IMG/VR virus record: IMGVR_UViG_2537562190_000019
Length of the DNA: 9,179 bases
Strand: one strand, 5' to 3'
Source: a virus
Taxonomy: Duplodnaviria; Heunggongvirae; Uroviricota; Caudoviricetes
The translations under genes were made by a program, and so were the position numbers. Positions 5,950 through 9,179 of this stretch are shown in pieces. A model generated the notes under the pieces. The model was not told where the DNA came from and made no database searches. It saw only the letters and a program-made list of their open reading frames with translations. How positions within the stretch are numbered: position 1 is the first letter of the stretch; each line of letters starts with the position of its first letter.

Positions 5950-6135
5950 TTACTCCTCATCCTGAATACATGTCACTGTGTGGATAATTACGCCGGATAA
6001 ACCGGCTTTAGCTGATTTGTTAATTACTGTGCTGATTGCAGCCTGGACGTTTTCGGCCTTCACGTTCTGCGTGATGCCAACGGTATAGCCGCGCTTGTTA
6101 ACAGCACGGGAAAAAACGCGGAAGGTTTTAAGCAT
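5950..6135 (-). CDS. Hypothetical protein, 61 aa
   Basis: ATG 6135 with a G-rich Shine-Dalgarno; overlaps the end of the upstream 67-aa gene by 8 nt. Confidence 0.5.
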   Translation of the reverse strand: MLKTFRVFSRAVNKRGYTVGITQNVKAENVQAAISTVINKSAKAGLSGVIIHTVTCIQDEE

Positions 6136-6331
6136 GACGCACCCCCTGACGAATACGAGCGGCGAATACCATCACGCAGCCAGCCGGAGATTGCTGGCGC
6201 GCTTCCTGTTCGCTGGTGGCCTCGATGGTAATCACGCGCGGCTGTGCCGTGCTCAGGGCGATAAAACGCCAGATGTATTTATTCAGGTTGTGCGAGTCCC
6301 GCCCTTGCGGGTGTGTGGTATGATTTCTCAT
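6128..6331 (-). CDS. Small protein, 67 aa, possibly Icd-like (host cell division inhibitor-like); first gene of the leftward operon
   Basis: The C-terminal 67 codons of the 243-aa track ORF, starting at ATG 6331 with GAGGT 4 nt upstream. The rest of that track ORF runs through the divergent promoter and antisense to the regulator gene. The pattern IWRFIALS...ITIEATSEQEARQQ...VMVFAARI recalls Icd-like proteins of P4-type prophages; this is from memory, not a search. Confidence 0.45.
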   Translation of the reverse strand: MRNHTTHPQGRDSHNLNKYIWRFIALSTAQPRVITIEATSEQEARQQSPAGCVMVFAARIRQGVRHA

Positions 6332-6428
6332 AGCTACCTCGATACTTTCGCTATCGTTGGTTGTTAGACGCCCTGCATGTGTTGCGAGCACTGTAGGGCG
6401 TTGCTTAATTTGAGTGACAAAACTCAAA

Positions 6429-6509
6429 CTGTGCGCACAGATTAAAATCATGTGTGCGCACATGTCAATACTTAACATCTCATTTTTTTTGCTGTATTGT
6501 GTGCGCCCA
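6429..6509. promoter_or_regulatory. Divergent promoter/operator region with TGTGCGCACA palindromes
   Basis: Perfect palindromes CTGTGCGCACAG (6429-6440) and TGTGCGCACA (6453-6462), centres 23 bp apart; a degenerate third copy TGTGCGCCCA (6500-6509) about 28 bp before the regulator ATG. An interrupted inverted repeat ACGCCCT-N20-AGGGCGT lies at 6368-6401. Confidence 0.6.
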
Positions 6510-6536
6510 TAAAGTCCATTTAAGTGAGGTGCATCA

Positions 6537-6734
6537 ATGTCTAGCGGTAACACAAACAACAAATCAGCAAAGAAAAATATTCGATTCCCACATGAGCTTA
6601 TAGATGGGATTGATGCCAGCGTTGAACAAGAAAAATTAACTAATCCTAGTGCTAATTTTTCCGCATGGGTCTTAGATGCCTGTGGACGCAAATTAAAATA
6701 TGAACAGCGCCGCAAGGCCAAAGAGCAGGAATAG
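6537..6734 (+). CDS. Small DNA-binding regulator, 65 aa, putative ribbon-helix-helix (Arc/CopG-like); the only plus-strand gene
   Basis: GAGGTG 6 nt upstream of the ATG. KNIRFPHELIDGIDASV...NFSAWVLDACGRKL has an RHH-like strand-helix-helix pattern. Divergent from the operon with operators between, and followed by a clean intrinsic terminator. Confidence 0.6.
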   Translation: MSSGNTNNKSAKKNIRFPHELIDGIDASVEQEKLTNPSANFSAWVLDACGRKLKYEQRRKAKEQE

Positions 6735-6822
6735 TCCACCAGCAAGCCAGCACACTGAGCACATTGCCCACCAGACAGCAAATCGCTATGATGTTCTGGC
6801 TTATGTTTAGTGTTTTCCCATT

Positions 6823-6851
6823 GGCGACCGCCACAGGTCGCCTTTGTTTTA
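6823..6851 (+). terminator. Rho-independent terminator of the plus-strand regulator gene
   Basis: GGCGACC-GCCACA-GGTCGCC (7-bp GC-rich stem, 6-nt loop) followed by TTTGTTTTA. Confidence 0.7.
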
Positions 6852-6869
6852 TGTGTCATATGCTCCCCT

Positions 6870-7094
6870 TTACACTGCCTTACCTGAATTAATGCGATCC
6901 CGGCTTTTAACCCATTCCATAACCTCGGACAGCAGCCACCCTACAGAACGACCGCCCAGATTAAGACGTGACGGAAAGCGCCCTTTTTTCTCCAGTTCGT
7001 AGCGTGTAGTGCGGCACACTCCTGTTAACTTACGGCATTCATCCTCACGGATTACGCGATCTGATAGTGATTGAAATTGTGTATTTTGATTCAT
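6870..7094 (-). CDS. alpA: AlpA-family phage transcriptional regulator / excisionase-like protein, 74 aa
   Basis: LNLGGRSVGWLLSEVMEWVKSR matches the AlpA signature (...GxRSVGW...E...EW...) and the small HTH size fits. GAGGA lies 9 nt upstream of the ATG. Confidence 0.75.
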   Translation of the reverse strand: MNQNTQFQSLSDRVIREDECRKLTGVCRTTRYELEKKGRFPSRLNLGGRSVGWLLSEVMEWVKSRDRINSGKAV

Positions 7095-7129
7095 AAAAAA
7101 ACGTCCTCGAACGTTGCCGAACGAGGACG
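7095..7129 (-). terminator. Intrinsic-terminator-like hairpin plus U7 immediately 5' of the alpA start; its 3' arm contains the alpA Shine-Dalgarno
   Basis: On the mRNA strand: CGUCCUCG-(12-nt loop)-CGAGGACG-UUUUUUU-AUG. Perfect 8-bp GC-rich stem; 5' arm is CCUC (anti-SD), 3' arm is GAGGA (SD). Confidence 0.6.
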
Positions 7130-7156
7130 ATTCTAGGCGGTAGTAAAACGCCGTTT

Positions 7157-7189
7157 GTGTGATATCACACTACCAGCACGTGATATCAC
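7157..7189. promoter_or_regulatory. Paired palindromic operators GTGTGATATCACAC (7157-7170) and GTGATATCAC (7180-7189), centres 21 bp apart
   Basis: A perfect 14-bp palindrome and a perfect 10-bp palindrome two helical turns apart; the second overlaps the TGA stop of the 257-aa gene. A possible -10 (TAGAAT, minus strand about 7135-7130) lies just downstream. Confidence 0.55.
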
Positions 7190-7959
7190 TTTTTACGTTT
7201 TTGTTGAGATTCACGCCCCAAATACTTTTGCCATGTCTGCCAATGTGTTTTTGGAAATTCTATCCCTCTGGATGCAGCTATAGAATCAATTAAATCTGCT
7301 ATTTTAGGTAATGATTCCGTGTCCAGGTCTACATCACCCATTTCTGGAATAAGTTTAATTAAAGAGTAAATAACCTCATTCCTTTTTGACGATGCTTTTG
7401 GGCTATCTTCTGTTATCTTCGGGAAGTCTCCCGTATTTTTTATATTATCTAAATCACTAGCCATCACACACAAATAGTTAACATCAAATTCATAACCACC
7501 CTTACAAAAAACATACATGAGATTATCATCACCATACTTATTCGTAAGATGAGAACATTTTATATATTGTCTCATGCTAAATTCGACATCAGCAAAAACA
7601 TATGCCGGAGTATAATAAAACCCTGATAAGCTGCTAACATAATAACATTTGATAGAATTCCCTACAGGACCAATAATGGCACTATCTAAAAATTCAGTGT
7701 CACCAGTTAAACCAACTGTAAAATTACTTCCAAAAACAGCAGATTCATCATTGAAAGGATATTTTATTAATTCTTCCTCATTACAACCATTGATAAAATG
7801 ACATAATGAAAAATTGAATTTTTTAGCATCAATTTTTGGTATATATACAGAAATATTAAGAGCACCTATATATGCGTAATGATAAAGATCTTTTATTGCA
7901 CAGCCTAACTTTTCTGCCGCTTCAGGTAACGGATAATAGAGTCTTTTAGGTAATTTCAT
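7186..7959 (-). CDS. AT-rich hypothetical protein, 257 aa, unassigned family; N-terminal HTH-like segment plus a ~210-aa domain of unknown function; candidate accessory/defence cargo
   Basis: ATGA start/stop overlap with the integrase stop (7956-7959) and AGGTGG upstream. Composition is strikingly AT-rich (roughly one-third G+C by eye) against roughly half for flanking genes. N-terminal LPEAAEKLGCAIKDLYHYAYIGAL resembles excisionase/AlpA-type HTH. Confidence 0.7.
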   Translation of the reverse strand: MKLPKRLYYPLPEAAEKLGCAIKDLYHYAYIGALNISVYIPKIDAKKFNFSLCHFINGCNEEELIKYPFNDESAVFGSNFTVGLTGDTEFLDSAIIGPVGNSIKCYYVSSLSGFYYTPAYVFADVEFSMRQYIKCSHLTNKYGDDNLMYVFCKGGYEFDVNYLCVMASDLDNIKNTGDFPKITEDSPKASSKRNEVIYSLIKLIPEMGDVDLDTESLPKIADLIDSIAASRGIEFPKTHWQTWQKYLGRESQQKRKK

Positions 7960-9179
7960 TTGGCCACCTTCAGCATAACAATATTTTCATGATTTCCAGC
8001 CAGCACATCGAGACGCTCAACCCATAGATTAAGAGCGTCACGTTTTGCATCAAGATAACGGGAGTGATTATAGACTCGTTGCATTCCTGGCAACTGGTGC
8101 GCGGTAAGCTGCTCCACAACGTGCGGTTCCACGCCTAAATCGTTCAGCATCGTTGTAAACGTGTGCCGGATGTCGTGCAACGTCCAGGGGGCTTGATTAA
8201 TGCGTCTGTGTGCCGTTCTTCCGTACTCTGATACGGATGATTGCCCTTTCAGTTCTCCGAGCAATAATCCCGTGTGCCTGTTCTGCTCCACCAGCTTCAT
8301 GACAAACGGCAAGATCGCTTCCGGTATTGGCCTGAATATTGCTACCTTCGTTTTGCTGTGTTCTTTCGGCACGGTCCAGAGCATTTCTTTAAAATCCCAT
8401 TCCTGGACCTCAGAGCGTCTTAGCTCAGTGGTACGACATCCGAAGACAATCAGGAGGCGAATCAGGGCGCTGTAGTACGGTGGGTAAATTTTTTCATCAA
8501 GGGCGCGTAGTAATTCCCCAAGCTCCTTGTTTGTTAGTACGCGCTCGCTTATTTCTGCTTTTTTCCCAACATCACCGACAACCATATCATCAAGAACGTT
8601 GCTGATTGCGTATCGTCGTTTTCGGCAGTACTTAAGCGCCTGTTTGCATACCTGTAGCAAAAATCCGGCTGATACCGGATTACGCTTAGCAAGCTGGTCA
8701 AAACAGGCCAGCCAGTGGCGTAGCTCGCATTTTTCCAGTGGCATAGCGCCAATCTGGCTAATTATGTGTTTATTGATCCGGCTTTTCAGTGATTCGTAGT
8801 CAGTGCGCTTTTCCTTTGCGTACGATTCAAGCCAGTAAGTGAGCGCTTCCTTAACCGTCACGGGGGCTAACGCGTCCTGTACAGCATGATTAAGTTCATA
8901 GCGCGGATTTTTCCCCTCAGCCAGCCAGGCGCGACACTGTGCCGCTTTTTCCCTGGCAGCTTTCAGGCTCAGATCGGGATAATTGCCCAGCCTCAGACGT
9001 TCCGGTGATATCTGCCTACCAGTTCCGGCCCTGTAAGTGAAATACCAGGTTAACAGGCCATTGGTTGAATGCCTTACGCTAAGGTTGCCACCATCATTAA
9101 AAAAGGTGTTTTTTGTGGTTGGTGATCCGCTTAATTTTCGTAAAAGAGTGTCGCTAAGTCTATGAATTGCCCTGCTCAT
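7956..9179 (-). CDS. int: Tyrosine site-specific integrase, P4-like family, 407 aa
   Basis: N-terminal arm-binding-like region (TWYFTYRAGTGRQ...), catalytic signatures CRTTELRR (Arg), LHDIRHTF (HxxR) and VYNHSRYLD (His...Tyr nucleophile). The ORF starts at the last base of the window, so its promoter and any attL/tRNA lie outside. Confidence 0.85.
   Translation of the reverse strand: MSRAIHRLSDTLLRKLSGSPTTKNTFFNDGGNLSVRHSTNGLLTWYFTYRAGTGRQISPERLRLGNYPDLSLKAAREKAAQCRAWLAEGKNPRYELNHAVQDALAPVTVKEALTYWLESYAKEKRTDYESLKSRINKHIISQIGAMPLEKCELRHWLACFDQLAKRNPVSAGFLLQVCKQALKYCRKRRYAISNVLDDMVVGDVGKKAEISERVLTNKELGELLRALDEKIYPPYYSALIRLLIVFGCRTTELRRSEVQEWDFKEMLWTVPKEHSKTKVAIFRPIPEAILPFVMKLVEQNRHTGLLLGELKGQSSVSEYGRTAHRRINQAPWTLHDIRHTFTTMLNDLGVEPHVVEQLTAHQLPGMQRVYNHSRYLDAKRDALNLWVERLDVLAGNHENIVMLKVAK

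Follow-up and report, generated by a model that had tools for sequence, protein, structure and literature searches.

How does a phage satellite keep its master activator gene, alpA, silent when that gene lies directly downstream of other genes read in the same direction? This question is raised by a 9,179-nt stretch of satellite DNA (IMG/VR record IMGVR_UViG_2537562190_000019; "the window" hereafter means this whole stretch), in which alpA follows the integrase gene int and a gene for an uncharacterised protein, hyp257, on the minus strand, with a hyp257–alpA gap of 91 nt. In phage-inducible chromosomal islands (PICIs), over-expression of AlpA alone leads to runaway excision and replication and impairs growth and viability (PMC6092414); because AlpA alone can trigger this process, a leak-proof lock on its expression is to be expected. 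Helper phages induce alpA, and the phage-encoded inducer has been described as still under study (PMC6092414); our search of the PICI literature found neither an identified inducer nor a description of a hairpin or of operators at alpA. On balance, the answer probably lies in a composite alpA control region that combines a lock against read-through with an operator-controlled promoter embedded in a hairpin, with hyp257 as the prime candidate regulator. The 95-bp interval 7095–7189 would represent this control region in a sub-family of Gram-negative PICIs ordered int-hyp257-alpA.

Read along the minus strand, the interval and its borders run AAAAAG-TGA (the hyp257 stop) TATCAC GTGCTGGTAG TGTGATATCACAC AAACGGCGTTTTACTACCGCC TAGAAT CGTCCTCG TTCGGCAACGTT CGAGGACG TTTTTTT ATG. 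In the sense direction, the gap thus consists of a GTGATATCAC palindrome, 11 nt, a second GTGATATCAC palindrome (the core of GTGTGATATCACAC), 23 nt, the hexamer TAGAAT, the stem arm CGTCCTCG, a 12-nt loop, the stem arm CGAGGACG, U7, and the alpA AUG (Table 1). An initial annotation of this DNA had described an 8-bp GC-rich hairpin followed by U7 and abutting the AUG, and both its sequence and its coordinates are correct. The stem is perfect over 8 bp, with six G-C pairs, and the hairpin alone folds at −17.0 kcal/mol; RNAfold resolves the 12-nt loop into a 2 × 2 internal loop and a GCAA tetraloop. The 41 nt from 7135 to 7095 presented a folding energy of −19 kcal/mol (z = −4.8), which was equalled by none of 200 shuffles, and a 121-nt region around the hairpin presented a folding z of −4.7. 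The 3′ arm was also correctly described as the only Shine-Dalgarno (SD) sequence of alpA: apart from GAGGA, no purine-rich element lies in the stretch from the stem to the start codon, and alpA has no alternative in-frame start codon.

The computed probability that the SD is unpaired was 0.00–0.13 in read-through RNA, in agreement with the masking that had been proposed for such transcripts, versus 0.3–0.6 in an RNA that begins with the last bases of the 5′ arm; the leader of this shorter RNA folds at −4.2 kcal/mol (z = +1.06) and is no more structured than random sequence. The stable GC-rich stem-loop with U7 directly 3′ of the stem also represents, by its sequence, a canonical-looking intrinsic terminator in this lineage. 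A simple terminator scan missed the hairpin for the sole reason that its loop limit was 8 nt, and an Rfam scan of the whole window (E ≤ 1) gave no covariance-model match in or near 7095–7189.

Comparison among alpA loci of E. coli indicated where this hairpin occurs. In loci where an inserted gene separates int from alpA, the gap measures 79–103 nt and a homologous GC-rich hairpin directly precedes the AUG, and the last 63 nt before the AUG fold at −18 to −24 kcal/mol in these short-gap loci. Loci with alpA approximately 417 nt after int presented weak AT-rich structures only (−5 to −9 kcal/mol), and no such hairpin is found upstream of alpA in EcCICFT073; presence of the hairpin therefore correlates with a gene directly upstream. 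The inserted gene belongs to either the hyp257 or the DUF6387 family, and the hairpin is homologous with either; since the two proteins are mutually unrelated, the hairpin does not belong to an upstream-gene cassette common to both. When hyp257-type islands are aligned with DUF6387-type ones, sequence similarity starts within the hairpin and runs on into alpA. Judged from these alignments, the hairpin is part of the alpA module, yet it is present where a gene sits immediately upstream. The DUF6387-type islands (L002, L003, and similar loci) carry the DUF6387 gene in the slot between int and alpA, in two variants that are 36% identical, and have the hairpin and no palindromes; the int-alpA gap looks like a variable slot for cargo or regulator genes.

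Homologues of hyp257 were found in Salmonella, Klebsiella, Providencia, and metagenomes, always in the order int-hyp257-alpA and with a gap of 88–91 nt before alpA. We compared about 25 distinct junctions of this type, including those of E. coli. All of them contain a stem with an SD-like core (GAGGA, GAGGG, AGGAG, AAGGG, GGAGG, or AGGTGG) in the 3′ arm, 4–10 nt from the AUG, and the loop is exactly 12 nt long in 22 of the 25 tabulated hairpins. The arms vary in ways that preserve pairing (CGTCCTCG/CGAGGACG; GCCCTCG/CGAGGGC; GCTCCTG/CAGGAGC; ACCCTTG/CAAGGGT; GCCTCTAC/GTGGAGGC; CCACCTG/CAGGTGG), several of them with G-U pairs. Covariation was counted in a gapless, loop-anchored alignment of 16 distinct sequences, in which 98.4% of the stem cells form standard pairs, seven of the eight stem pairs show changes on both sides, and the observed covariation score was reached by none of 500 shuffles; sliding the partner by 1–3 columns lowered pairing to 32–45%. 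On the opposite strand, these G-U pairs would read as C-A mismatches, so the selected structure is the sense-strand RNA. The covariation shows that selection has maintained a predicted hairpin that pairs the alpA SD.

The tail that follows the stem is U6–7 in E. coli and Salmonella, U5 in DUF6387-type islands and L098, UUUAUCU in Klebsiella, AUCAUUU in Providencia, UAUCCAU in L072, UGCCCCA in L078, and AAC in L081. The U-run is absent or degenerate in Providencia, L072, L078, and L081–L084, and is missing in about half of the related lineages. As the SD-bearing stem is kept by covariation while the U-run is often lost, the function shared by the family would be SD sequestration; the predicted intrinsic termination is an extra layer in some lineages, this window included. 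The 12-nt loop (7110–7121, compared with L003, L066, L070, L072, and others) falls into two mutually reverse-complementary classes, UUCG..CGUU and AACG..CGAA, a pattern that looks as if the loop had been inverted between the inverted-repeat arms in the course of evolution.

Besides read-through, the initial annotation had considered a transcript starting inside the hairpin, and this proposal is favoured by the comparative data, as most lineages have a −10-like hexamer directly next to the stem. In the window, TAGAAT scored 6.9 bits with a −10 position weight matrix, versus 1.3 bits for the next-best match between dyad 2 (the palindrome nearer to alpA) and the loop. Directly against the stem, the loop-anchored alignment shows a −10-like hexamer (NANNAT; variants TAGAAT, TACAAT, CAGAAT, CAAAAT, AATAAT, CAATAT, TAAGAT, and AAAAAT), and it shows no conservation in the 8 nt that precede the stem region. 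In most lineages, the equivalent hexamer ranks first or second among the −10 matches, at an equal offset. We infer that alpA transcription starts at 7123/7122, 7 nt downstream of TAGAAT and in the last bases of the 5′ arm; given such a start, the mRNA of alpA itself would lack the inhibitory arm.

Upstream of the hexamer are the two GTGATATCAC dyads, 21 bp apart. No further copy of this exact 10-mer was found in the window or in 18.5 kb of source-genome sequence, and recurrence of any exact 10-mer palindrome within 40 bp was observed in 2 of 2000 Markov simulations of the window. Both 10-mers are invariant in seven close relatives, with 3–4 substitutions in the 11-nt spacer. The twin dyad is kept across genera at a distance of 20–22 bp (about two helical turns), while its type drifts between distant lineages (GTGATATCAC, GTGAATTCAC, GTGAAATCAC/GTGATTTCAC, GTGGGAATTCCCAC, TGGAAATTTCCA, and TGGAATATTCCA); the distance from the dyad-2 centre to the last T of the hexamer is 32.5–33.5 nt across lineages, and the filler sequence is unconserved. 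The locus thus presents the features of an operator pair, i.e., perfect dyads with drifting flanks, spaced by integral helical turns and held at a fixed distance from a promoter element, and the early view that these palindromes behave like conserved operators is borne out by the invariant 10-mers and by this fixed distance. Positions near −41 and −62 would be typical of activator sites, or of a repressor acting over the −35 region. In some lineages, both dyads lie within the 3′ end of the upstream open reading frame (ORF), suggesting that they are positioned relative to alpA and not to the stop codon. In two IMG/VR contigs (L083 and L084), both dyads fall within the 3′ end of a hyp257-like ORF, where they encode a peptide repeat (LEISK...MEISK); the same DNA is hence under both protein-coding and operator constraint.

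An unbiased scan of viral contigs for twin dyads gave 11 matches with an 11-nt gap, eight of which are hyp257-alpA junctions, as well as 42 matches with a 12-nt gap, which come from a group of unrelated phages that carry TGATATCA boxes in arrays. In this group (L105, L108–L114, and about 35 further IMG/VR contigs of 35–60 kb), six to nine (G)TGATATCA(C) boxes are located in a divergent regulatory region and adjoin a Firmicutes-type ribosome-binding site; the dyad there is a repeated operator. Presence of the motif in an unrelated phage group indicates a generic operator type, with no link to a helper phage. TATCAC/GTGATA were also compared with the operator half-sites of phage lambda, an identification that was rejected because relative order and spacing are opposite.

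The dyads are present in every hyp257-type junction and in none of the DUF6387-type or long-spacer islands; they co-occur perfectly with hyp257 and are independent of the AlpA allele, which makes the hyp257 protein the likeliest binder and, by this reasoning, the best candidate. Three binders had been suggested at the outset. AlpA was rejected, since its residues 12–72 are identical in the dyad-less L003; L004, with its long unrelated spacer, differs only slightly in these residues. The 65-aa YlcI/YnfO protein would rather belong to another palindrome pair, at 6430–6462, and hyp257 was retained as a candidate. Among hyp257 homologues, the N-terminal 40 aa and the C-terminal 70 aa are conserved and the middle is hypervariable and beta-rich; a C-terminal motif (GIEFPKTHWQTWQKYLGR and variants) changes along with the operator type (homologues P0001–P0019). 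The AlphaFold model of hyp257 (predicted local distance difference test score, 79) contains an N-terminal beta-alpha-alpha-beta unit, and the N-terminal domain weakly resembles a helix-turn-helix (HTH) domain. hyp257 belongs to no Pfam or NCBIfam family; a whole-protein Foldseek search of the model against the PDB gave nothing significant, nor did a profile of the N-terminus against PDB sequences and Pfam, and PADLOC gave only a weak mad1 match (E = 0.015).

The palindrome pair at 6430–6462 consists of two copies of TGTGCGCACA (6430–6439 and 6453–6462), 23 bp apart, in the divergent region between the YlcI/YnfO gene and the icd-like operon. The copy at 6453–6462 is the core of a 14-bp palindrome, ATGTGTGCGCACAT (6449–6462), and a degenerate third copy is found at approximately 6499–6510. 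TGTGCGCACA has TGTG...CACA half-sites as in the alpA dyads, with a centre of 2 bp versus 4 bp. This pair is also present in islands that lack hyp257 (L031, L039, and L052), which points to a different regulator module; plausibly, it goes with YlcI/YnfO.

In the composite control region that we propose, transcripts entering from int-hyp257 could not be translated into AlpA, because the SD is paired in the hairpin. In this E. coli lineage, the U7 tract would also terminate these transcripts 1–7 nt before the AUG, and the terminator and the mask on the ribosome-binding site (RBS) would form a double lock against accidental induction. Transcription of alpA proper would depend on the −10 element TAGAAT against the stem and start at approximately 7122/7123, yielding an mRNA that escapes both termination and masking; centred near −41 and −62, the dyads would serve as operators of a dimeric regulator that sets the activity of a weak promoter without a −35 element. 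Induction would be decided at the promoter and its operators, with the hairpin as a passive insulator. In relatives without the U-run, untranslated alpA is probably still silenced, and Rho-dependent polarity is a plausible extra effect.

Several observations weigh against parts of this proposal. The structural alignment was anchored on a hairpin that had already been located, and the covariation values obtained from it lean towards structure. In Klebsiella and L072, the A/T-rich hexamer serves in part to lengthen the stem as well, and its conservation is therefore not independent of that of the hairpin. Five lineages (L080, L082–L084, and L098) have their best −10-like hexamer 13–21 nt upstream of the stem; a start directed by that element would place the whole hairpin in the alpA mRNA, so that active opening would be needed. 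The putative promoter has no recognisable −35 element, and a consensus promoter scan (9-of-12 rule) gave no match on the minus strand here, the putative promoter being too weak for this rule. DUF6387-type islands carry the hairpin without dyads, and promoter control in these islands is left unexplained. Finally, the N-terminal HTH of hyp257 is conserved even where the operator type differs, and covariation thus provides no support for this HTH reading the dyad.

The simplest rival explanation is an ordinary terminator of the int-hyp257 operon, with alpA transcribed from elsewhere and the SD overlap a by-product of tight packing. A GC-rich stem with U7 located 54 nt past the hyp257 stop fits this description, as does the finding that a strong hairpin occurs only at loci with a gene directly upstream of alpA; however, compensatory changes keep the SD-bearing stem in lineages that lack the U-run (Providencia, L072, L078, and L081), the distance between stem and AUG is constrained, and the hairpin travels with alpA rather than with the upstream gene, which can be of an unrelated family. 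We consider this explanation unlikely. A terminator could alternatively act as a regulated attenuator, in which transcription comes from upstream and an antiterminator (AlpA or a helper N/Q-type protein), loaded at the dyads, bypasses termination. The terminator in the window is strong, Pseudomonas aeruginosa AlpA is a Q-like antiterminator with terminators immediately before the first gene of its target operons (PMC7969949), and PICI AlpA activates its own expression and is induced in trans by helper phages (PMC6092414). The U-run is not conserved family-wide, however, and its loss in about half of the lineages tells against the initial idea of an induction switch opened by a helper-phage antiterminator. 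Nor would an antiterminated polymerase express alpA as had been envisaged, since its read-through RNA would still fold and, according to the computed accessibility, mask the SD even with termination bypassed. Islands of the EcCICFT073 type have been shown experimentally to be inducible by helper phages (PMC6092414) and lack the hairpin, which is at odds with its role as a helper-inducible switch. The P. aeruginosa AlpA element, GGGACG-N5-GGTA, was not seen in the locus sequence and is itself non-palindromic, the DNA-binding region of AlpA is the same in dyad-less islands, and a phmmer search of AlpA against PDB chains gave no AlpA from an RNA polymerase complex at E ≤ 1. Antitermination by AlpA or by a helper phage finds no support as the switch, and regulated attenuation appears decidedly unlikely.

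A different possibility is that the hairpin is part of the functional alpA mRNA and acts as a translational riboregulator, opened by a trans-acting RNA or protein, encoded by the island or the helper, that recognises the 12-nt loop. The recurrence of this loop length, together with recurring AAC...GAA or UUC...GUU ends, would suit such a partner, as would the several distant lineages whose best −10-like element precedes the hairpin entirely. This riboregulator is nevertheless very unlikely: a sequence-specific partner could hardly tolerate two reverse-complementary loop orientations, a search of the island for a loop-complementary partner gave matches at chance level, the hairpin has no Rfam family, and a stem of −17 kcal/mol would be hard to open.

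Relative to these alternatives, the composite control region has several known counterparts. Protection of a transposase gene from read-through is known from the insertion sequence IS50. For IS10/Tn10, shielding of the transposase gene from external read-through by fold-back inhibition was described by Davis, Simons & Kleckner (1985, Cell 43:379; cited in PMC13181058). As in IS10 and IS50, a mobile element here shields a dangerous gene from transcripts initiated outside the gene's own promoter, and the 5′ segment that pairs with the RBS is present only in the longer external RNA, the gene's own transcript starting inside the structure (a start that is predicted here). Consistent with fold-back occlusion, the SD lies within the selected stem in all lineages. 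Unlike in IS10 and IS50, the gene encodes a phage satellite's transcriptional activator rather than a transposase, a U7 tail on the hairpin should additionally bring about termination in this lineage, and no antisense RNA partner is evident. With the Rho-independent terminators of E. coli, the hairpin shares a GC-rich stem followed by seven U, placed after a stop codon and oriented like the upstream operon; it differs from them in that its 3′ arm is the SD of the next gene and its tail abuts the AUG, in its long 12-nt loop, and in that relatives keep the stem and often not the U-run. The arrangement is a variant of known regulatory devices, not a new principle.

The P. aeruginosa AlpA system resembles the locus in having a small regulator named AlpA and a terminator immediately before the first regulated gene. 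In that system, the AlpA element (GGGACG-N5-GGTA) is asymmetric and located between −35 and −10 (PMC7969949; PMC9371919), whereas the elements found here are perfect dyads upstream of the −35 position; moreover, the terminator here precedes alpA itself, and the family keeps the SD pairing and not the U-run. Homology of the AlpA encoded in the window with the P. aeruginosa antiterminator was considered and dropped, as phmmer against the PDB detected no relationship: at E ≤ 1, nothing was retrieved from all PDB chains but 8c3t (an AlpA-family phage regulator) and a spurious match, with the presence of P. aeruginosa AlpA chains in the set being unconfirmed. A scan of genome contigs with AlpA gave only four distant, uninformative relatives.

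The islands most similar in gene content are those of the EcCICFT073 type, which carry int, alpA, an icd-like gene, DUF4222, primase, terS, and a capsid gene, all co-oriented, and in which alpA is the master activator, helper-induced and autoactivated (PMC6092414). EcCICFT073 and its relatives differ from the window in their int-alpA spacer, which is 360–420 nt long and contains no gene, no GC-rich hairpin, and no GTGATATCAC dyads; the island studied here has the extra gene hyp257 and a compact 91-nt control region instead.

Gram-positive PICIs offer a further comparison. In Staphylococcus aureus pathogenicity islands (SaPIs), master repressors of the Stl type are encoded next to int and have their operators at the promoter of the induction cascade. 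Likewise, hyp257 adjoins int and the putative operators are at the alpA promoter, and its variable, sensor-like region would fit helper-specific de-repression. Unlike stl, hyp257 is co-directional with int and alpA and not divergent, and its product has no homology to Stl. We put forward as tentative, and as rather doubtful, the notion that the hyp257 family provides the missing master regulator and helper-phage sensor of this PICI sub-family, i.e., a functional counterpart of SaPI Stl. A terminal DNA-binding module of hyp257 would then bind the twin dyads at approximately −41 and −62, its hypervariable beta-rich middle would engage helper-phage proteins and thereby turn alpA on, and the hairpin would make the switch leak-proof against transcription from the regulator's own operon.

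For one widespread sub-family of islands, the locus represents a compact, phylogenetically supported control region with an RNA lock, a probable embedded promoter, twin operators, and a candidate regulator gene. Its elements are small enough to mutate, and it would offer a testable handle on silencing and induction of Gram-negative PICIs. It may also serve as a natural example of isoform-specific translation, and synthetic constructs could borrow, as an insulator part, a terminator plus RBS-masking hairpin that is bypassed by an internal start.

The window matches E. coli O157:H7 strain F6321 at 100% identity; in that strain, the island is approximately 9.5 kb long, is flanked by yljB/cspD and clpS, and contains terS and a major capsid protein gene (RefSeq annotation). 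Pfam matches in the window include Phage_integrase, Phage_AlpA, D5_N/primase, and Phage_capsid, and the order on the minus strand is int, hyp257, alpA, an icd-like gene, DUF4222, a D5-type primase gene, terS, and a capsid gene. With co-directional int, alpA, and primase genes together with packaging and capsid genes, a small size, and a specific chromosomal site, the window is, by gene content, a PICI-type satellite of E. coli O157:H7. The int stop and the hyp257 start overlap by 4 nt (ATGA; 7956–7959), which makes co-transcription of int and hyp257 probable; this transcription is probably the source of read-through into alpA. The same overlap suggests translational coupling of the integrase with the putative regulator hyp257.

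Table 1. Positions of the alpA control elements and adjoining genes in the window.
Feature	Position	Strand	Basis or remark
U7 tract, terminator tail between stem and AUG	7095–7101	minus	direct reading
3′ arm CGAGGACG; GAGGA is the only Shine-Dalgarno	7102–7109	minus	GAGGA 9 nt from AUG
12-nt loop UUCGGCAACGUU	7110–7121	minus	RNAfold: two inner pairs closing GCAA tetraloop
5′ arm CGUCCUCG; predicted alpA transcription start (7122/7123) at its 3′ end	7122–7129	minus	covariation; start from −10-like hexamer
−10-like hexamer TAGAAT, putative PalpA	7130–7135	minus	abuts stem; best −10 matrix match in intergenic region
Dyad 2, 14-mer GTGTGATATCACAC (10-mer core 7159–7168)	7157–7170	both	centre approximately −40.5/−41.5 from predicted start
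Dyad 1, GTGATATCAC	7180–7189	both	centre approximately −61.5/−62.5; contains hyp257 TGA stop (7186–7188)
alpA, 74 aa, satellite master activator	6870–7094 (ATG 7092–7094)	minus	Pfam Phage_AlpA, E = 1.9e-16; RefSeq AlpA-family/HTH regulator
hyp257, uncharacterised 257-aa protein	7186–7959	minus	winged-HTH-like N-terminal domain (conserved), hypervariable middle, helical C-terminal domain (conserved); candidate for binding the dyads
int, tyrosine integrase	7956–9179	minus	Pfam, RefSeq

The one divergent gene of the island is the YlcI/YnfO gene (6537–6734, plus strand). A terminator-like hairpin (GGCGACC..GGTCGCC) with a T-rich tail is located just downstream of it (6823–6842, plus strand), 28 nt past the alpA stop on the other strand; it would be the terminator of the convergent plus-strand gene and is crossed by alpA transcripts. 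A mechanically called ORF of 243 aa on the minus strand (6128–6859) does not represent a gene, as the RefSeq annotation of this region contains only a truncated Icd-like pseudogene and small hypothetical genes.

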